A stretch of 63,276 nt of DNA, counting the filler, from Pseudobdellovibrionaceae bacterium (GTDB lineage: Bacteria; Bdellovibrionota; Bdellovibrionia; Bdellovibrionales; UBA1609), in the NCBI GenBank assembly GCA_030591685.1. It is 7 parts of 7 records of this genome, joined end to end, with 100 filler letters (N's around TTAATTAATTAA, not from the genome) between each part and the next. Parts side by side here need not be neighbours in the genome. Positions count along the whole stretch, not along the records: positions 31,356 to 40,908 come from JAUVAX010000064.1; 6 more parts are not named here. One strand, given 5' to 3'. Under the pieces are notes generated by a model. That model saw nothing but the letters and a program-made list of their open reading frames with translations, made no database searches and was not told where the DNA came from. This document shows positions 8,404 to 41,072 of this stretch, one piece after another. Position 1 is the first letter of the stretch; every line of letters starts with the position of its first letter. The position numbers were made by a program, and so were the translations under genes.

Positions 8404-8525
8404 AGAGAGATGAGAACGCAAGAGTTCGACAAAAATAGCAGGATGCTTTTTTTGCACAGGCACGCAGTGACTGCCCGCAGGGTGGAGGCCACGAAGGTCG
8501 ACATAAATCTCTCACTTATGCACCA
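8404..8525 (+). repeat. tRNA-derived structured repeat, copy 1 (contig edge)
   Basis: Reverse-complement homolog of 40612-40726: GAGTTCGA-caaaaatagc-aggat-gctttttttg...gccc-gca-gggt...AATCTCTC...GCACCA. Confidence 0.85.
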
Positions 8526-31355: not shown

Positions 31356-31382
31356 AAAGGTCATCCTCTGGTATTTGCCCAT
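31356..31382 (-). CDS. 5' stub of a gene running into the gap (MGKYQRMTF...), possibly mltA
   Basis: AGGAG RBS 6 nt before ATG 31382; frame open to the gap. Confidence 0.45.
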
Positions 31383-31483
31383 GTGCAACTCCTATCTTTT
31401 TGTTTAGCGACTAAAATAGGTACTAGATGGGTGACCTTTTTTCATTTCGCTAAGAGTTGCACTAGAAACTTGAATTCAGCCCG

Positions 31484-33328
31484 CTACTTAAACCATATTT
31501 TGTATTTCCCTACTCCGGAGTAAGAGGTGACTTTGTAGCGGTAAGTCCCAGGGACGCCCTGATATGCTATTTTCTCAGTTGATTTTAAGTTAATCGAGGC
31601 TGCCACTTTAACCCATTTGCCGCCCTGTAGCTGGTCAATGTATAGGTCAAAATCGGCTTCTAAGGGCCCCACAAGCCATACTTTATGCAAGCCCGTTGTG
31701 CTTTCAATTGTGCCCGCTCCCGGGTGAAGACCTACTTGTATATTAAAGTTTAACTCACCCTCTTGACCCACACAGTTAGTACAAGGGGACGGATCAATAA
31801 CCTCATAGTTTATTTTTAATGAAGCTTTTGAAAAATCTGAATACGCTCTTATCATCACATGCCAAACCCCTGCAGATGCCGATTCAAATTTGCAGACCTC
31901 ATTGTTACCCGCTTTATAGGGGCGACAATCATAATCAGACAAACTGGGTTTGGCGCCAAATTTAACATAAAGGTCTGCATCCCCGGTGCCCCCAGAGAGT
32001 TCATAAGTTAAGTTAACACTATTTAAGGGTACACTTATGGTATAAAATTTTTCACTACCCTTGTTGCCTGAAATATTATTCACCTCACTGCCATTAAATA
32101 GCTCTACTGGCCGGGCGCTGTTATTTTCATCGCCATCACCCACTTGAACAGTACTCATATTAACAAGTATGTTGGGCGAACCAGTACCTATGCCACTGAG
32201 TGTACCTGAAACACCTTGTGCATAGAGGCCTGCGGCCACCTCTGAGGGGGTTGCATTCGGGTGGGCCGAAAGAAGAAGTGCCGCCACGCCGGCAACATGG
32301 GGCGAGGCCATAGAGGTCCCACTAATTGTGTTTGTAGATTGTCTAGAGTTAATCCATGTGGATGTAACATCAGTACCGGGGGCAAAAATATTTACGCAAG
32401 CCCCGTAGTTTGAAAACGAAGAGCGAGCATCGTTGCCTGTAGTGCTGCCTACAGTAATGGCCTCACTCACCCTTGAGGGAGAACTACTGCAGGCCGAAGT
32501 GTTACTGTTACCAGCGGCCACAACAAACGTAACGCCCGCTTGAATCGCTGCTTTTACGGCATCATCGACGGCCTGTGATACCGGACCTCCTAAACTTAAG
32601 TTCGCCACAGCTGGGCTTATGTGGTTTTGATTCACCCACTCAATGCCCGCAATTACATCTGAGAACCGACCAGAACCCGCACAATCTAAAACTCTCACAC
32701 CATATATATTAACACTTTTCGCTACCCCGTAGCGGGCTCCACCAATTGTGCCCGCAACATGGGTGCCATGGCCATTGCAATCTGTTGAGTCGTAATCATT
32801 GTCAACAAAATCAAAGCCATGTTGAGCGCGACCCTCAAAGTCTGAGTGCTCTATATAAACTCCTGTATCTATAACATAGGCATTAACGTTTTCAGCTGAG
32901 AGCACATGGGTATAACTTTTATCTAAGGGTAGTTGTGCTTGATCTATACGGTCTAAACCCCATGTGGGGCTCGCTTGAACAGAATTAATAGTGACCACAT
33001 GATCCTCTTCAACGTACGCAACACTTGGCTCTAAACTCATTTGCTTAGCCTGTGCCAGTGTCATTTTATATACCCCACCCTGAAGGCCAAGGGAGAACGT
33101 CCGGTACACCTTCGCATCGTACTTTTTTGAAAGAGTCATCAATTGGCTCTGCGTTTGTTGCTTTAGTGTTAAGTTTAGGGGTTTTAATTTCGCGCCTAAG
33201 GCTCCTGATTTTAATACAACAATGTACTGTTGCACCTCTGGCTTTATAGGCACCTCAAGGTGGTCATCACTACAACCACCTAAAGTTATTAAGAAAATTA
33301 AAAATACTGCCTGCAAAAGAATGTTCAT
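31484..33328 (-). CDS. S8 subtilisin (proteinase K/aqualysin-like) lipoprotein with I9 propeptide and PPC domains
   Basis: LGGC lipobox; WGLDRIDQ, VIDTG, GHGTHVAG, SGTSMASPHVAG; GGTGDADLYV PPC domain; RBS supports ATG 33328. Confidence 0.95.
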   Translation of the reverse strand: MNILLQAVFLIFLITLGGCSDDHLEVPIKPEVQQYIVVLKSGALGAKLKPLNLTLKQQTQSQLMTLSKKYDAKVYRTFSLGLQGGVYKMTLAQAKQMSLEPSVAYVEEDHVVTINSVQASPTWGLDRIDQAQLPLDKSYTHVLSAENVNAYVIDTGVYIEHSDFEGRAQHGFDFVDNDYDSTDCNGHGTHVAGTIGGARYGVAKSVNIYGVRVLDCAGSGRFSDVIAGIEWVNQNHISPAVANLSLGGPVSQAVDDAVKAAIQAGVTFVVAAGNSNTSACSSSPSRVSEAITVGSTTGNDARSSFSNYGACVNIFAPGTDVTSTWINSRQSTNTISGTSMASPHVAGVAALLLSAHPNATPSEVAAGLYAQGVSGTLSGIGTGSPNILVNMSTVQVGDGDENNSARPVELFNGSEVNNISGNKGSEKFYTISVPLNSVNLTYELSGGTGDADLYVKFGAKPSLSDYDCRPYKAGNNEVCKFESASAGVWHVMIRAYSDFSKASLKINYEVIDPSPCTNCVGQEGELNFNIQVGLHPGAGTIESTTGLHKVWLVGPLEADFDLYIDQLQGGKWVKVAASINLKSTEKIAYQGVPGTYRYKVTSYSGVGKYKIWFK

Positions 33329-33620
33329 AAGCCCCCTCGAGGCCACATAGGCCCTCAACATCAGACTTCTCAAATAAAAAAGAGGTTAATAGAATTTTTT
33401 TATTTTTATAACCCCGTTTGCGCCCCTCTTTATCACTCGCTCAGATTAGGGCGACGATTACACGGCGTCACACACAGCAGCAAAGGCCCCCGGCGAGTGA
33501 GAGGTTACGGGTCTTTGATCTAAAAGGTCACAAGTGCAAGTTGTTTGTCTAATTCATATTTTTTATGTAGCAAATGGCTCTATAAAAAAATAGACTCTTA
33601 TTTTGACAAGCGAGGGTCTT

Positions 33621-34079
33621 ATGAAACGTATAAATTCAGTATTAATATTAATTTTTGTCACTCTTTTTTTGACGAGCTGTGAAAAAAGCGAAGAAGCCAT
33701 GGTGTTTACCCTGAGTGTCGAGTGCACGGCGGCCACTGATTGCGGTGATAACACGGCCAACGCTAAAACGCTCTCTGTTGCGGTTGTGGATGCTAGTCAA
33801 ACGTGCACCTCTCCGCCCTCCACATTTGTAGCTACAGGCACAGGCACTATACTTTGCGCCGCCGGAGTCTGCACCGCCAGTGTCACCGCGTGGACTGACG
33901 TCACTGCAACAGGGACACTAAGTATACTTGTCGCTATTGACACGGACTCAAACGGCACCGGCGGCGAGTTGAACGAGCCCATTGGCTGTCAGAACAATAT
34001 TAATTTCACAAGTGGTGAGACCGTTATAATGAATGAGGCCTCTATGGATGGGTCCGTGGGCTGGATTGATGGCACCTGA
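33621..34079 (+). CDS. Cys/Thr-rich lipoprotein
   Basis: MKRINSVLILIFVTLFLTSC lipobox; DTDSNG Ca-loop-like motif. Confidence 0.7.
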   Translation: MKRINSVLILIFVTLFLTSCEKSEEAMVFTLSVECTAATDCGDNTANAKTLSVAVVDASQTCTSPPSTFVATGTGTILCAAGVCTASVTAWTDVTATGTLSILVAIDTDSNGTGGELNEPIGCQNNINFTSGETVIMNEASMDGSVGWIDGT

Positions 34080-34276
34080 TGGGTGCCCACCGGCAACTAC
34101 GCCTCAAATTTTGACTGAATAGCCCTTAGGGGCTTTAAGTTTTGTGAGTTTTGTTTAAAAAATAATTAACCTTAAAATTAACTGCGCATGTCATACATCA
34201 CCCCAAGTGGCCGTTAACCCTGCTGCCTTATTCGTTTTTAGATGACTTCAGTTAACAAAACTATACTATCGCGTTT

Positions 34277-36013
34277 ATGTATACGCTCCGAGATTATCAG
34301 CAAAAAGCTGTGGATAAAACCATTCAATACTTTAAAAAAAAGCGTGACCCTGCTGTTATCGTTTTACCCACCGGTGCCGGGAAAAGCCTTGTTATTGCCG
34401 AGCTAGCTCGCATTGCAAAAGGGCGAGTGTTAGTATTGGCCCATGTTAAAGAATTAGTCGAGCAAAACCACTTAAAATATGAAAGCTATAACCTTAAAGC
34501 CGGCATTTACTCGGCAGGCCTGAATAAAAAAGACTCACAACAAAAGGTTATCTTTGGCAGTATTCAATCTGTTGCAAAAGCCAGTGATAGTTTTTTTAGC
34601 GGCTTTACTTTGCTTGTCATTGATGAGTGCCACCGTGTGAGCCTTGAGGCTGACTCTCAGTACGCTAAAGTGATTAAAAGCTTAAGGCAAAACAATAAAA
34701 ATATTTGCATACTGGGCCTAACAGCAACACCCTTTCGACTGGGGACCGGTTGGATTTATAACTACAACCATCGCGGGGTTGTTCAAACCAAAGAGCCTCG
34801 GTTTTTTAGTCACTGTGTATATGACTTACCCCTTCAGTACATGATTACTCATAAATACCTAACACCACCAATAAAAGTAGATATCCCTGTAACTTGTTAT
34901 GATTTTTCTGAACTCACTGAGTCTGGTAGAAACTATACCCTGGCGCAAATTGAAGAGCTGCTAAAGCAGCAGCGCCGACTCACCCCACTGATTATAAAAA
35001 ATATCATTGATATTACTGAAAATTATAACCGCAAGGGCGTGATGATTTTTAGTAGCACCATTAAGCACGCACACGAAATACTTGGTTGCCTGCCAAAAAA
35101 TGAATCGCGCATTATACTTGGAGAAACAGAAAACCACGAGCGGGACGAAATAATAAATGATTTTAAAAATAAAAAATTTAAATATCTCGTTAACGTCTCT
35201 GTACTAACAACAGGGTTTGATGCCCCCCATGTAGATGTTATCGCAATCTTACGACCCACAGAATCTATTAGCTTATACCAACAAATCATTGGCCGTGGCC
35301 TAAGGCTTGATAGCGAAAAGAAGGATTGCTTTGTGCTCGACTACACCGGCATGGGGCATGATATTTATAGCCCCGAAATTAATGATAAAAGGCCTGTCAC
35401 TGAGTCTGTTGCCGTACAGGTGTGCTGCCCCAAATGTGGTTTTGAAAACGATTTTTGGGGCCGAGTGGACACTGAGGGCAATGTCTCCGAGCACTTTGGC
35501 CGAAAGTGCCGAGGGGGCGTACAAAATCCTGAAACTTATGATTTTGAACCCTGTGGGTACAGATTTAGGTTTAAACTTTGTAACGAGTGCGGTAGTGAAA
35601 ACGATATCACAGCTCGCGAATGCCAAGCTTGTAAAAATGTTTTAATTGATGCGGATTCAAAATTAAAGCAAGCCAGGCTTTCTAAAAATGCCCATGTACT
35701 ACAGCCTGACTCTGTAGAAATGCAAGAGCGCTTTGATAAAAATGGCAACCCTTTTTTAGAAGTTAAGTACTATGACTACGACGCCCAATATTTAGCCGAA
35801 TACCATTACCTGAACAACCAAAATAGCCTTAAAAAATTTAATATTAACTTTTTAAGATCTCACCTGAAAAGACCCGAGCTCAACCTTAGTATAAAGTCTG
35901 TAAATGAAATCGTGAGCTCTAAAAACCACTTGCGTATGCCTTCATTTGTCATTGCCCGAAAGCAGGGTAAGTTTTGGAAAATCACAGAAAAAATTTTTGC
36001 AGAAGAATTTTAA
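34277..36013 (+). CDS. radD: RadD/YejH DNA repair helicase (SF2)
   Basis: [36 protein letters not shown], zinc CPKC...HFGRKC...C. Confidence 0.92.
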
Positions 36014-36096
36014 ACACACCTGTTGTATGTATATTATTGCTTATAAAAAAATAAACCGAAAACAGCGCGCCTGTTTTTATATAAAAAACTCTGCCT

Positions 36097-36645
36097 TTAT
36101 TGGGTTAACAAAATGAGTTCTTTTCGCGAGCATGACTTAATCACACCCCTCATTTGAGCCCACACCTTTGCCTTTACAAAGGAGCGCTTAATAACGTTTG
36201 CCAGTATAGGGTAATCACTCAGCGGCAAATTGCAGACGCTCACTTGAGGCCTTTGTTTATCGGGCCTCGTATAGCACTTAACGTGAGAGTTAAAGGCAAA
36301 CTGCTCTACCTCGTTACAAGACAACCTCTGGTCCTCAGATGCGGTTTGTTCACACCTCTTAGTATGCAATTTTTTTTGCAAACACAATGCGGCAGAACTC
36401 AGCCACACGTAGCCTTGTGAGCTAAAATCTATCCAAAGTCTTTTATCAAACAGTAATTTTGAACAGTATTTATAAGCAAACCCAATATAGTAGCCTTTAG
36501 GCCCACAGGCTTGATCCACCTCACGGTGAAGATAATAACTACAATCAATTATTTGTTCTGAAGGGGGGGCGAAGGAAAACCTCTCCTCAATGCCCTCACA
36601 AGTGGCGCTTGCACTGTGGCCACTAATGTTAAACATTATAATCAC
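36097..36645 (-). CDS. Cys-rich secreted protein, stanniocalcin-like
   Basis: C..Y...CG..GY....YKYC...FS..G..W......CLQ..L...C....AF.SH..CY...VC.L pattern; a hydrophobic signal-like stretch continues upstream of the GTG. Confidence 0.6.
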   Translation of the reverse strand: MIIMFNISGHSASATCEGIEERFSFAPPSEQIIDCSYYLHREVDQACGPKGYYIGFAYKYCSKLLFDKRLWIDFSSQGYVWLSSAALCLQKKLHTKRCEQTASEDQRLSCNEVEQFAFNSHVKCYTRPDKQRPQVSVCNLPLSDYPILANVIKRSFVKAKVWAQMRGVIKSCSRKELILLTQ

Positions 36646-36854
36646 TGCAAAAAAAACAGAACCTATCCTTTTTATCCTTTGTCCGCTGGACTGCGCCTTT
36701 TTAAAATATGTAATACCCGCCCCCTTAATTAAAAACTTTTATTTATTATCTGCCTTTAGCCGTATAAGTGAAATTTTAAACTAACCCACTTAAATAGGCG
36801 CAACAGGCTTTCAAAAATGATCAAAAAATTGACAGCTTAAAAAAGACATGCCTT

Positions 36855-37640
36855 TTAACGGCCCTCATCGTCAATGTCTGTCTGCGGAAAGAGCCCCGCA
36901 TTAAACCTATAAACCTCAGTGGCACCTTTGTTTTTTCGCCCTAAGTACATTGCTAATTCTCGTTGAAACTCATAAATCCGCCGCCTTGCCTCTGGCAGGT
37001 CCTCTGGGCTTGCTGCAATTGTAAAGCCGACCTGGCATTGTTTTTCGGGCGAGTTATTTTTTAATGAATCGTCTTGGCGCTTTAAATTTTGAGAGAAAAC
37101 TTTAATTATACTTTTTGCCTTGTCTCTGTTGCCTAATGTAGTCGTCCCTGTTTCGGTGGCTCTCCACTGGCCCTTTGTTATTTTTAATTCTCCGAAACTT
37201 ACAAGCACCTCTACAGTTGATTTAATTTTTTCTTCGGATACCCCCAGTGTCTGGGCGACCCATCCCACATCAGACTTAAACCCATCAACAGAGGTTAGCT
37301 CTAGTAGGCTATCAAAGTACCAAGCGTCTGCGTTTTCAATCCTGTCATTAGAAATTTTTTGATAGGCATTGGGGTTTATAGAGTGAGCCTCGAGAAGTGC
37401 AAGTTTATTTTTCTTCTGAATTTCTAATTTATCTAAAATAGACTCAACGGCCTTTGCCGATAACCTTCTTCTACCGGAGATAACTTCACTTAATGCCGAG
37501 TGGTTGACCCCCAGTTGACTCGCAAAAGCCCTCAAAGAGTACTTTGGGTTGTTAGCTTGTCTTGTGCTTAGCTCCTCTTTAAGTAAATCCCTCAAAGTTT
37601 GCTTTAGATACGGCTCATAGCCAAAAGTTACGTTTTCCAT
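36855..37640 (-). CDS. TIGR02147 family protein (HTH plus DUF4423)
   Basis: R...NPKYSLRAFA.QLG....LSE...GRRRLS; WY...LLEL; EVYRFN.GLFP. Confidence 0.88.
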   Translation of the reverse strand: MENVTFGYEPYLKQTLRDLLKEELSTRQANNPKYSLRAFASQLGVNHSALSEVISGRRRLSAKAVESILDKLEIQKKNKLALLEAHSINPNAYQKISNDRIENADAWYFDSLLELTSVDGFKSDVGWVAQTLGVSEEKIKSTVEVLVSFGELKITKGQWRATETGTTTLGNRDKAKSIIKVFSQNLKRQDDSLKNNSPEKQCQVGFTIAASPEDLPEARRRIYEFQRELAMYLGRKNKGATEVYRFNAGLFPQTDIDDEGR

Positions 37641-37683
37641 GAAACCCCCAAATTACCGTTAGAAGTACACAAAACTTAGTGTG

Positions 37684-37704
37684 TGGTCCAATGATTTTGG
37701 ACCA
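37684..37704. promoter_or_regulatory. Perfect palindrome (candidate operator)
   Basis: TGGTCCAA-N5-TTGGACCA between divergent genes. Confidence 0.55.
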
Positions 37705-37780
37705 TTTTAGGAAAAAACCCATTAATAATCAGCGCACCACAGGCAATAATACTAAAATAACTATTGCAGGAGTATGAATT

Positions 37781-38686
37781 ATGATTAAAGCCAACTTAAA
37801 GCTTTTGGGTGCGGTCCTACAAAACACGCTGTCGAAAGCAGTTTTTCTTCGTACGCCCGAACCCGAGGTATTAATAACTGATCCTTTATCCGTCTCAGAA
37901 TACGCGAAAGCAGAAGAAACAAATATGTCAGTCATCTATGCTATGAGCCTAGATTACATACACCGCATAGTCCCTCAAGAGATAAGAGATAAGGCTATTG
38001 ATCTCTGTTGCGGGCCCGGCGTTTGCACCTCCAAAATATCCTCTCTTCTAGAGTTTAACGACGTAATCGGCGTCGATCTCTCAGAACCAATGCTTAATTC
38101 CGCCAGAAAAAACTATGCCTTAAAAACTGAAAGCTCTAACCTTTCATTTAAAAAACTTGATATTACAAAGTTAGACAGCGTTTATGAAAAAGCTCAGTTT
38201 AACTTGGTCACTTTTATGTGTGCGGCTCATCACTTTCAGACGCTACAAGACGTCAGATCTGTTATTTCACAAGCAGAAAATGTGTGTACAGATAACGGAT
38301 ATATTATCATCATTGACCTCGCCCGGCTTAAAACAAAACAAGTTACTGATAAATACATTCAGCTGATGGGTGAGGATTATTTAAAATCTGGCTACACGAG
38401 CTTTTACAATGAATTTAAAAACTCAATGTATGCCGCGTGGACCACTGAAGAGTTAGCGAGCTGCGTAAGCCCAGACACTCGTAAGAAATGGTATCAATTA
38501 AGCCCTATGGGGCTACCAACACTTCAACTCATCGTGGGTATCCCGCCTAAAAAATCAGTCTTTAACAATCCTCCACTGTCACAAACTGTTATAAAAAAGA
38601 TACTCAGCAAAGAGCCCTTTCCGCAGTGGTCCTATAAAGCATTAACCAGAGCTCTTACCTTTTCTAAATTGAAAACCTTAAACTAA
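37781..38686 (+). CDS. Class I SAM-dependent methyltransferase
   Basis: RTPEPE, IDLCCGPG, GVDLSEPML, AHH, IIDLAR. Confidence 0.88.
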   Translation: MIKANLKLLGAVLQNTLSKAVFLRTPEPEVLITDPLSVSEYAKAEETNMSVIYAMSLDYIHRIVPQEIRDKAIDLCCGPGVCTSKISSLLEFNDVIGVDLSEPMLNSARKNYALKTESSNLSFKKLDITKLDSVYEKAQFNLVTFMCAAHHFQTLQDVRSVISQAENVCTDNGYIIIIDLARLKTKQVTDKYIQLMGEDYLKSGYTSFYNEFKNSMYAAWTTEELASCVSPDTRKKWYQLSPMGLPTLQLIVGIPPKKSVFNNPPLSQTVIKKILSKEPFPQWSYKALTRALTFSKLKTLN

Positions 38687-38892
38687 GGGTGCCTCTTTTT
38701 TTTAATTTGCCTTTGAGGTATTCGAGGATGTGTTCTCACATGCCCTCTGCGCCATCGCCTAATCACTCGATCTTCTTTATCTCAAAATGAGGCGTGTTTT
38801 GCCCTCTTTTTTGAAAGCTTCGGTGTTTAGTACTATAATATAAGATCGCTAAATAAAAAGTGAGTTAATCATCAAAAGTTAAAGGGTTAATC

Positions 38893-39594
38893 GTGAAGAG
38901 TGTTCTCATTATACCAGCACTATTTTTTTTAGTGATCCCCTTTCAAAACTGTACACCTGTACACGAGGAGATTTTAGCACTGCCATCAATTGGGACGTCA
39001 GAAATTATTGACTCCGCAATCAGTATTCAATTGTTTGAAACCACGCTCTTTCCGATTTTACGTCAACAGTGTGCGAGCTGTCATGGGACGAACACACAGC
39101 CCCTTCACTCTGTTAGTAATGCTACTGACTCCCACAACACTATTGTTTACTTATCCTTAGTGGACTTTACTACAATCAGTAACTCTCGCCTTTCTGTTAA
39201 CATTAAAAATGGTCACCAAGGTATTTCTAATACACTTCACGTAAGTATTGAGGCTGCAATTACAGGTTGGCTCAATGGACTTGTAAGTGCAGGTATCTCA
39301 CCTGACGCACCGGCAGCCTCAAAATTAGAGGCCACATTTTCATCCATTCATTCTTTAATTTTAACCCCTAAGTGTTTGAATTGCCATAACCCTGGGGGAG
39401 TACGCCCTTCCGAGAATTATACGGATTACCAATCAACCCTTGATACGGGCAAGGTAACCGCATTTGATGCAAGTAACAGTGGCCTGTATTTAGAGTGCTT
39501 AAGTGGCGAAATGCCCGAGGGTGCCCCGGCACTCTCTCCAGAAGAGCTCGCGGCAATTATTGACTGGATCAATCAAGGCGCTCTTAATAATTAA
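38893..39594 (+). CDS. Diheme c-type cytochrome lipoprotein
   Basis: FQNC lipobox; CASCH and CLNCH; GEMP...LS.EE...I.DWI.QGA planctomycete-cytochrome-like C-domain. Confidence 0.8.
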   Translation: MKSVLIIPALFFLVIPFQNCTPVHEEILALPSIGTSEIIDSAISIQLFETTLFPILRQQCASCHGTNTQPLHSVSNATDSHNTIVYLSLVDFTTISNSRLSVNIKNGHQGISNTLHVSIEAAITGWLNGLVSAGISPDAPAASKLEATFSSIHSLILTPKCLNCHNPGGVRPSENYTDYQSTLDTGKVTAFDASNSGLYLECLSGEMPEGAPALSPEELAAIIDWINQGALNN

Positions 39595-39706
39595 ATTGTA
39601 AGTATTAATCGGCGATCTCGTTTAGTTTATAATTTTCACTTATTTTTGTAAAAAGTGAAAACTAACAATCCTTTTTTAACCACAAGACAAGGCGAAGACT
39701 ACGAGC

Positions 39707-39830
39707 TTCATGTCGGGCTCCGGCCCTCCACTCTTCGGGCCGCTCACTGGCGTTTTCATCTCTCCCTCCACATCGGGATTAGGAGTTCTTTTGTAATTCA
39801 ATTAGTTTTAGTATTTGAAATTAATGGTGC
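39707..39830 (-). repeat. tRNA-derived structured repeat, copy 2 (internally deleted)
   Basis: Direct repeat of 40620-40790 lacking 47 nt between two CGTT microhomologies. Confidence 0.9.
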
Positions 39831-39997
39831 AAGAGAAGTATTGGAATTACAAACTGAGTGTTCTCGGTGGGCAGTTTAGAGGAAATTTCGAAAAGCACGT
39901 ATCCATGACTACACAATCATAATACCAAATCACAGGCCCGACACAATATGCGCAGCGTATTGTGAATGGGTTAATTCTACACCACCATTAATAATTA

Positions 39998-40519
39998 ATG
40001 GGGATGTCTATGATACGAAACTTAACGAGAGCAGACTTTAATGAATACTATCGAGTCAGATTAAAAGGCCTACAAGAATATCCTGTGGCATATTCCTCAA
40101 TGCCAGAGTTTTTTATAAATGCATCTCAAAAAATGCATGATGATCTTCTAGATGATAGCGCCAGTGATTCAAGTTTTTCTCTTAAAGGCTATTTTGAAAA
40201 TGAAAAACTGTTAGGGTTGGCCGGACTGAAACCCGAAACGAGACAGTGTGTAGACCATAAAGCGTCCCTGTGGGGGCTCTATGTGGATCAGGACTATCAA
40301 CGAAATAAAATTGGATCCAAATTAATTCATGCATTATTGATAGATGCGATTAAAGACAAGAAATTGAGACACATTAGGCTGGCAGCATCTGTTTCATGCA
40401 AAAATGCTGTTGATTTGTTTTATAAAACCGGTTTTGAAAAATATGGCCTCGAACGAAATAGTATTCGTGAGGGTTCAATTTTTCATGATCAGGTTTATAT
40501 GCAAATTAGTTGTGTCTAG
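39998..40519 (+). CDS. GNAT acetyltransferase
   Basis: RL.GL...P.AY.S, HKASLWGLYV...YQRNKIG, A..LFY..GF..YG.E. Confidence 0.9.
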   Translation: MGMSMIRNLTRADFNEYYRVRLKGLQEYPVAYSSMPEFFINASQKMHDDLLDDSASDSSFSLKGYFENEKLLGLAGLKPETRQCVDHKASLWGLYVDQDYQRNKIGSKLIHALLIDAIKDKKLRHIRLAASVSCKNAVDLFYKTGFEKYGLERNSIREGSIFHDQVYMQISCV

Positions 40520-40601
40520 TCCGCAGGTGCTTACGTATTGTTTCTGTTACTCGAACCAAAAAACATTAAAGAATTTAGAACGTTATTAGCATAACTGTAT
40601 T

Positions 40602-40784
40602 TGGCTAAAAAGGGAGAGATTCATGTCGGGCTCCGGCCCTCCACCCTTCGGGCAGCTCACTAGCGTTCGCCGTGCAAAAATAGCTTCCTGCTATTTTTGT
40701 CGAACTCTAACGTTCTCTTCTCTCCCTTTACATCGGGATTAAGAGTTCTTTTGTGGTTCAATTTGTTTTAGTTTTTGAAATTAA
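40602..40784 (-). repeat. tRNA-derived structured repeat, copy 3 (full length, abuts the tRNA-Ser 3' end)
   Basis: In tRNA orientation: spacer, GAGTTCGA, multi-hairpin insert, AATCTCTCCCT...GCCA; 11-bp closing stem 40609-40619/40719-40729. Confidence 0.9.
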
Positions 40785-40876
40785 TGGCGGAGAGGGAGAG
40801 ATTCGAACTCTCGGTACACCCTTAAGTGTACGGAGGATTAGCAATCCCCTGGTTTCAGCCACTCACCCACCTCTCC
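40785..40876 (-). tRNA. tRNA-Ser (GCU)
   Basis: GGAGAGGTGGGTGAGTGGCTGAAACC AGGGGA TTGCTAA TCCTC, long variable arm, GAGAGTTCGAATCTCTC CCTCTCCGCCA. Confidence 0.95.
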
Positions 40877-40908
40877 GTAAAAGCGTGCTTAATTGCTGAA
40901 TTATTTTG

Positions 40909-41008: not shown

Positions 41009-41072
41009 AGTTATTTAGTTATTTAGTTATTTAGTTATTTAGTTATTTAGTTATTTAGTTATTTAGTTATTT
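41009..41072. repeat. Octamer tandem repeat (AGTTATTT) x8, cut by the gap
   Basis: Eight perfect copies; the last ones overlap the stop codon of the CoA-hydrolase gene. Confidence 0.95.

Follow-up and report, generated by a model that had tools for sequence, protein, structure and literature searches.

The locus described here raises the question of whether a tRNA-Ser(GCT) gene followed by two copies of a folded repeat, with a single protein-coding gene between them, represents an undescribed site for the serial capture of gene cassettes, as a preliminary description of the sequence had proposed, or a combination of elements of known kinds. It lies in a window of 63,276 nucleotides, that is, the whole stretch of DNA analysed, which consists of seven contigs of one 2.66-Mb assembly (G000) with N spacers between them. 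C45, a contig of 9.5 kb (window 31356-40908), carries the tRNA and repeats at its end. This contig overlaps contig C83, through which the sequence continues into a gmhA-like gene, tRNA-Arg(ACG), and tRNA-Asn, placing tRNA-Ser(GCT) downstream of the gmhA-like gene. G000 is the sole member of its genus in the comparison set, and the relatives with which it was compared belong to other genera. Contig C46 starts with a tandem AGTTATTT repeat (window 41009-41072) that recurs at the end of contig C22 and is unrelated to the tRNA-Ser locus.

Layout of the tRNA-Ser(GCT) locus

Read in the orientation of the tRNA, the locus consists of tRNA-Ser(GCT), a first repeat unit (unit A), 82 nt of sequence, a GNAT acetyltransferase gene in antisense, approximately 180 nt, a CCA at 39825-39827, and a second unit (unit B). 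ARAGORN, Pfam, and blastn confirmed this order of parts, which is the one originally claimed. The coordinates of the individual features are listed in Table 1.

Table 1. Features of the tRNA-Ser(GCT) locus and related units of the same assembly; positions are those of the window unless a contig is named
Feature	Position	Strand	Remarks
tRNA-Ser(GCT), encoded CCA	40785-40876	-	ARAGORN; Rfam RF00005, 54.2 bits
Unit A, complete	40602-40784	-	183 nt; tRNA-linked-repeat layout; ends GCCA
Antisense copy of host tRNA 3' end, within unit A	40712-40727	-	13/16 match
Multi-hairpin insert dividing the copied T-loop of unit A	40622-40699	-	78 nt
Worn tRNA-tail copy of unit A, pseudo-CCA end	40602-40621	-	First 11 nt identical to the tRNA
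GNAT acetyltransferase ORF	39998-40519	+	Pfam PF00583, E 1.7e-12
Junction CTCTTGCACCA	39825-39835	-	CCA alone reliably shared with the tRNA
Unit B, decayed copy	39690-39824	-	47-nt deletion and worn tail
Third unit copy, Ser-type, partial	8405-8525	+	Start of contig C44; sequence 5' of the copy missing
Second-subfamily unit	G000:C55:2618-2925	-	
Second-subfamily unit	G000:C84:57070-57368		Runs into C11

From the CCA onward, unit A comprises an AT-rich spacer of about 55 nt, the antisense tail copy, a sense T-arm with TTCGA, the insert, and the tail copy. The hairpins of the insert include a 10-bp hairpin with an AGGAA loop (40675-40699), a CCC-GAA-GGG triloop, and a terminal GGGC-CGGA-GCCC hairpin. 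Folding of the whole unit gave a z-score of -3.1, equalled by none of 200 shuffles, and the antisense copy is predicted to pair with the tail copy inside the unit. The antisense copy matched the tRNA no better than did 11 of 200 shuffles for unit A, compared with 0-2 of 200 for its counterparts in E. coli, G026, and contig C59.

Comparison of units A and B showed that their common sequence starts at the CCA in both, just as the preliminary description had stated. The two share blocks of 77 nt (88% identity) and 52 nt (92%), with blastn E values of 4e-20 and 3e-15, and agree at 114 of 129 aligned positions overall; their identity to each other (88%) exceeds that of either to the copy behind tRNA-Ser(TGA) (84% and 83%). 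Unit B is a second copy in the sense of being 88% like A, but it is not a full one. Its deletion lies between GAACG pentamers at A 40711-40715 and 40664-40668, where slippage would be expected to place it, and removed the 5' half of the T-loop together with the long hairpin. Its tail matches the tRNA tail at 12 of 19 positions. The stretch preceding unit B's CCA had been called a degenerate tRNA-like end; in register with the tRNA tail it matches at just 9 of 19 positions, essentially the CCA only. The locus holds two copies rather than a repeat array. From the sequence, we infer an insertion event at tRNA-Ser(GCT), with the far end of the insert presumably at the junction CTCTTGCACCA.

Several further features between the units were considered. 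A palindrome, CCATTAAT-A-ATTAATGG (39985-40001), overlaps the ribosome-binding site of the GNAT gene and, in tRNA orientation, contains the 9-nt junction CCATTAATT again, at a distance of 174 nt from that of unit B. A putative eroded third unit in 39825-39998 found no support, with 42 of 500 shuffles scoring equally, and a promoter and terminator scan yielded results at chance level.

The arrangement could also be an artefact in which the assembly misjoined a repeat around an unrelated gene. Contigs of G000 do end at such repeats (C44 start, C84/C11), and the unit-B side is unbridged in run X1, whose contigs are of low depth. However, there are 15 differences between A and B in 129 positions besides the 47-nt deletion, and X1 contigs, which may derive from the source sample, match 40209-40632 and 40636-40804 without a difference, leaving this explanation extremely improbable. 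An X1 joint of 40737 to 39788 was evaluated as an empty site and rejected, its letters matching the Ser(TGA) paralog on contig C59, and neither an empty site nor an excised circle came to light in the low-depth contigs of this one run.

A family of repeats of the tRNA-linked type in the order

Elsewhere in G000, Ser-type units are found behind tRNA-Ser(TGA) on contig C59 and, truncated, at the start of contig C44. The latter ends in TGCACCA, resembling the junction before unit B. Since neither tRNA-Ser(GGA) nor tRNA-Ser(CGA) was found in the G000 assembly, the C44 copy may follow one of these. Right behind the Ser(TGA) unit lies a 190-aa ORF that appears pentapeptide-repeat-like by eye (G000:C59:845-1417), and in L021 a similar ORF follows the Ser(TGA) unit at a distance of approximately 3 kb. 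A second subfamily, present behind tRNA-Asp(GTC) and tRNA-Gly(GCC), has other hairpins but an equal plan, consisting of an antisense tail copy, four or five hairpins, and perfect 19-nt tail copies. On contig C7, which joins C55 downstream of tRNA-Asp, there is a run of small accessory genes, several of them GNAT-like by eye, and this run behind the Asp unit is possibly another accretion zone.

To survey the repeat more widely, we used an exact 31-nt core, which was found at 20 loci in GTDB genomes, and a covariance model (R1) derived from 24 copies, all from this bacterial group. Titled records bearing the core belong to Bdellovibrionota. In the scan of the order with R1, 26 candidates per genome were scored and match counts are lower bounds; matches were found in at least 58 of 151 genomes, with up to at least 18 in a single genome. 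Unit A, itself a training sequence, scored 90.4 bits, and the Asp/Gly subfamily gave no match to R1. The hairpins show covariation, being 88% paired and having 42 cells in which both sides changed, a level reached by 0 of 500 shuffles; this result is inflated by the relatedness of the copies. The exact core had 0 matches in viral contigs, and the subfamily pattern 0 in metagenome contigs. Searches by blastn with unit A returned nothing from E. coli genomes and only 22-nt chance matches from plasmids.

We then inspected 88 copies in their genomic context, a non-random set made up, after duplicates were dropped, of hits to the exact pattern, the top hits of the model, pairs, and twelve G247 loci. 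As to whether copies sit behind tRNAs, 42 of these lie within 300 nt behind a tmRNA or a tRNA for Ser, Arg, Val, Glu, Pro, Leu, Met, Gly, Gln, or Asn. Another 21 lack a T-loop and lie free between genes, for the most part in genus g46. Five more lie 0.8-2.7 kb behind a tRNA or tmRNA, and the remaining 20 possess a T-loop, the sequence retrieved around them containing no intact tRNA. In the tRNA-linked examples shown, the tail copy matches its own host gene. Units stand mostly single or free, and no locus among the 88 copies has more than two. Free copies of the insert (L104-L116 in G244, G282, and G247, and L085-L091) often occur in larger, REPIN-like palindromes with CAGGATG hairpins.

The layout of the unit is that of the tRNA-linked repeats of E. 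coli, the class name used in PMC8144298, which counts 22 in K-12 and gives as their hallmark a terminal stretch of 18-19 bp that repeats the end of the gene upstream. The same source traces them to 1978 (Egan and Landy 1978, Rudd 1999) and describes them as lacking a known function as of 2021, and RtT is reported as a product of the tyrT repeats (PMC3318445, PMC4986893, bioRxiv 2024.07.17.603846). The E. coli elements (tyrT/RtT, rttR, RF00391; rrA/rrB/rrF) are gene-less, start after the CCA of a stable RNA, and end in a tail copy. Unit A likewise begins at the base after the CCA, on the tRNA strand. The tyrT unit of E. coli K-12, 178 nt compared to 183 nt for unit A, has its parts in equal order: a 57-nt spacer after the CCA, an antisense tail, GTTCGA and hairpins with CCCGAAGGG, and a 19-nt tail. 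An antisense tail copy, a split T-loop, and a CCCGAAGGG hairpin are thus common to both. With regard to the 18-19-bp tail, unit A retains 11 nt before becoming worn, whereas the tail is complete in the Asp/Gly units of G000 and nearly so in many relatives. Tandem copy number varies in E. coli as well, at 1-14 places per genome in 4,733 of 5,426 genomes.

Alignment of the whole of unit A with the E. coli unit gave 104 of 168 matching positions, reached in 0 of 1000 shuffles, but driven by the tRNA-derived parts. Homology of the spacer or of the insert found no support, since 98-575 of 1000 shuffles were as good. Against 79 kb containing three full E. coli units, R1 gave weak E values of 0.03, 0.034, and 0.35; two of the units ranked above all R1 background hits, and a fourth (tyrT-tyrV) had an E value of 7.6. 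The Rfam RtT model (RF00391, cut-off 45 bits) had no hit in the window at E 1 and none over the cut-off in 5 genomes, compared with 133-138 bits for the E. coli controls. At threshold, Rfam detected only tRNA in the window and at 15 loci with mostly free copies, and among 19 unit loci RtT was reported from the E. coli control only. The E. coli unit had no match in phages. Because the spacer and insert are at chance level, the R1 hits are weak, and Rfam RtT is without a hit, common descent is unproven, although unit A and the E. coli repeats do share a design. Unlike the E. coli repeats, the present family has many free copies in genus g46, and at this locus two copies enclose a protein gene.

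The GNAT gene and the filling of the same site in relatives

GNAT is the only gene between units A and B. Its likely start is at 40010, giving a product of 169 aa (40010-40519, plus strand) that we call RimI-like after the name its homologs bear in a source. Identity to homologs is mostly 53-68%, and the GC content of the gene is 0.37 compared to 0.40 for the genome. Its occurrence is patchy, with homologs in 2 of 301 genomes of the phylum, and in the second of these (G101) there is no tRNA or unit within approximately 7 kb. A search for GNAT loci in metagenomes produced 203 pattern matches, of which 0 were confirmed.

The orthologous tRNA-Ser(GCT) was located at 22 loci in 20 genomes; L007 and L012 were left out and two were cut by contig ends. 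At the 18 readable loci, an R1-type unit stands directly behind the tRNA in 4, a unit judged related by eye in 2, and a displaced unit in 1, while none was recognised within 190 nt in the other 11. In all 17 other readable genomes, each from another genus, the tRNA is followed by other DNA, this GNAT gene being found behind it in G000 only, and the first ORF after the tRNA differs among the genomes examined. A fixed locus without cargo variation had been named as the finding that would speak against capture; across these genera the site is instead differently filled. Together with the patchy occurrence of GNAT (2 of 301), this is the pattern by which an islet is recognised.

Other arrangements of units and cargo were found at further loci. 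In L119 (1.9 kb), at the orthologous tRNA-Ser(GCT), and in L102 (1.7 kb), a single unit is separated from its tRNA by foreign DNA that ends in a short tail copy. Two units enclosing cargo occur in the window, L153, L101, and L154 (with a tmRNA-type tail), and in the first three of these the cargo is a single gene antisense to the tRNA. The cleanest cassette-like case seen is L101:4711-5750, in which tRNA-Ser(CGA) is followed by two nearly identical units of about 145 bp, 689 bp apart, with one 120-aa ORF between them that had no Pfam hit. PF00589 integrases were detected directly upstream of units in L059, L073, L082, L155, and L157 (5 of 14 proteins scanned), and in 4 of these 5 the adjoining unit has a short displaced tail. 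ORFs of 78 and 96 aa in L154 were considered as integrase pieces but dropped for want of a Pfam hit.

Islands carrying tyrosine integrases were reportedly described at the 3' ends of tRNA and tmRNA genes by Williams in 2002 and 2003. The present locus resembles such islands and islets in its intact tRNA and foreign DNA, followed by a putative short displaced tail with 9 of 19 positions in register, and integrase-bearing examples stand beside units in relatives. In contrast with a typical tRNA island, the insert is integrase-free, only the CCA is duplicated, and a whole unit flanks it on both sides. Our preferred interpretation, which we regard as reasonably probable, is that the locus is a duplicated tRNA-linked repeat at a tRNA integration hotspot, combined with an integrase-less GNAT islet. 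The GNAT segment itself is likely a small piece of foreign DNA that entered at the CCA end through ordinary tRNA-targeted integration. An integrase acting in trans, or lost since, would have crossed over at or just before the CCA, and an older unit B would have been pushed about 0.96 kb downstream and then decayed by hairpin deletion. The second unit could have arisen by an unequal exchange between the tail of the tRNA and the unit's copy of it, or have arrived on the islet's own end. Given that tail-to-tail crossing-over places every copy right after a CCA, no special recombinase would be needed to account for that position. The unit-cargo-unit arrangement follows from tandem units and insertion between tRNA and unit in combination, or from an islet bearing a unit. 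Among the observations that count against this islet interpretation, the far junction shares only the CCA, which is short for a typical integrase core, and the L101 pair, whose duplicated stretch runs exactly from the start of the antisense copy to the CCA without a displaced tail or spacer, fits a cassette better than island integration.

Alternatively, no enzyme may have been involved, the tandem pair having formed by slippage or unequal crossing-over and GNAT having entered once by homology-assisted or illegitimate recombination. Consistent with this, tandem units without cargo are known from L103 (184-bp period), L045, and E. coli, the junction shares 3 nt only, and neither PF00589 nor PF00239 revealed an integrase remnant on contig C45. 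However, the break lies exactly at the CCA, like the island ends of relatives that retain 4-13 nt of the tail (L153, L102, L059, L119), implying that random insertion is unlikely, and we consider an enzyme-free origin rather improbable.

The idea of iterative capture is partly supported, insofar as foreign DNA accumulates at the tRNA end, as indicated by the differing first ORF, the rarity of GNAT, and unit-cargo-unit arrangements at three other loci. An undescribed cassette site is not supported: the layout is that of the E. coli tRNA-linked repeats, most copies are single or off tRNAs, the mobility genes beside displaced copies are ordinary island integrases, and the second GNAT homolog has no unit. 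The locus works like a tRNA-linked repeat and like an islet, and is neither a member of Rfam RtT nor an integron.

Possible movement of the units

Integrons consist of an IntI integrase, an attI site, and attC cassettes. The likeness of the present locus to them resides in a single gene between folded repeats and in hints of single-stranded DNA folding, while it differs in having no IntI-type gene near, at most two units, mostly solitary repeats, and a tRNA-derived site. In an integron-like explanation, the units would be attC-like folded single-stranded DNA sites, and an enzyme encoded elsewhere would insert cassettes of gene plus unit serially at tRNA ends. The four unit-cargo-unit loci, the exact and nearly identical L101 duplicate, the antisense orientation of single cargo genes at three of the loci, the covarying hairpins, and the strand-specific triloops described below all favour this explanation. 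Against it count the lack of any locus read with more than two units, the prevalence of single or free copies, the G101 homolog without a unit, and the absence of the exact core from viral contigs and of meaningful plasmid matches to unit A. Together with the results of the enzyme searches, these findings make it an unlikely explanation.

The claim that no integrase or transposase is encoded in the window is correct for PF00589, PF00239, and, at E 1e-5, PF01797, but says little because the window is seven joined contigs and the locus lies at a contig end. In the whole of G000, PF00589 proteins over the cut-off were found on contigs C47, C93, and C61, with one below the cut-off on C87, and none in the window, on C45, or on C83. 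There is accordingly no IntI-type integrase beside the locus, the three tyrosine recombinases of G000 lying off C45/C83. The one on C61 (G000:C61:19996-20538) is a 180-aa protein with the catalytic domain only, has housekeeping-like neighbours, and has no unit near. PF00239 (resolvase family) had no match in G000, and PF01797 (Y1 HUH) none at E 1e-5, with weak RAYT-like hits below that cut-off. The single GIY-YIG hit of G000, in a 632-aa frame, is likely UvrC, and no small stand-alone GIY-YIG protein was found in the 5 genomes tested (shortest frame 266 aa).

REP, REPIN, and other palindromic repeats are linked to HUH (Y1) enzymes. The units resemble these in their GNA-triloop hairpins and their multiple free intergenic copies, with up to at least 18 matches per genome, but differ in their host-matched tRNA arms and in that no Y1 gene adjoins or tracks the copies. 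Y1 genes are present in 44 of the 58 genomes with units and in 53 of the 93 without, and at E 1e-5 they are absent not only from G000 but also from G247 (at least 18 copies) and G181 (at least 11 copies). None of 20 Y1 loci had a unit within 1.5 kb (best E 0.3). For a Y1 HUH or small GIY-YIG protein as the mobilising enzyme, these searches revealed no link to the units, and none of the enzymes surveyed tracks the unit as a recombinase in trans might. Nothing identifies a dedicated mover of the units among tyrosine recombinases, resolvases, Y1, or GIY-YIG proteins.

The hairpins themselves carry signatures that might reflect either DNA or RNA folding. A comparison of loop registers, partly biased by its own pattern, covered 69 matches that were 60 nt or longer after duplicates had been removed. 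In these, C-GNA-G stems favoured the DNA-triloop register over the UNCG tetraloop of the other strand by 58 to 1 (8.7 to 1.9 in shuffles). These stems fall on the tRNA strand in 59 cases and on the other strand in 4, and the middle base is A in 37, C in 10, T in 9, and G in 3. In the E. coli tyrT region, C-GNA-G triloops numbered 13 to 0. GNA triloops are unusually stable in DNA, and their strand specificity therefore hints at a single-stranded DNA stage. With the free intergenic copies as further grounds, the units likely spread as non-autonomous elements, which would pass through such a folded stage. Our literature search, outside which most subscription papers fell, found no account in which repeats of this kind flank genes or move as DNA.

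With regard to RNA, the rRNA-linked repeats of E. coli bind CsrA via GGA loops, with the tRNA-operon members scored as unlikely binders (PMC8144298). By analogy with E. coli RrB, a co-transcribed unit would be cut at its tail copy, and its GGA loops could serve to bind CsrA. First loops were AGGAN in 42 of 60 cases and last loops contained GGA in 50 of 59, a census made circular by the AGGA in the seed pattern. Of the 151 genomes of the order, 140 carry csrA, whose presence is thus not discriminating. We regard GGA loops as candidate CsrA-like sites as a lead only.

The locus itself is probably a modest islet, and its value lies in the repeat family. This family is a variant of tRNA-linked repeats that is missed by Rfam, occurs in at least 58 of 151 genomes of one order, has arms matching many tRNAs as well as tmRNA, and is also found free. 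It carries two testable signatures, namely GNA triloops of the DNA type on one of the strands and GGA loops resembling CsrA sites, and several complete g46 genomes, with up to at least 18 copies, make its mobility testable by comparison of strains. A more far-reaching view, to which we assign a low probability, is that the tRNA-linked/RtT repeats are folded single-stranded DNA recombination sites with a guide-like antisense arm, moved by an enzyme in trans from tRNA genes to intergenic sites or the reverse and sometimes accompanied by a gene cassette, as with GNAT, L101, and L153. If true, this would explain a repeat family that has been without a known function since 1978, and would add a tRNA-anchored, integron-like route of gene capture.
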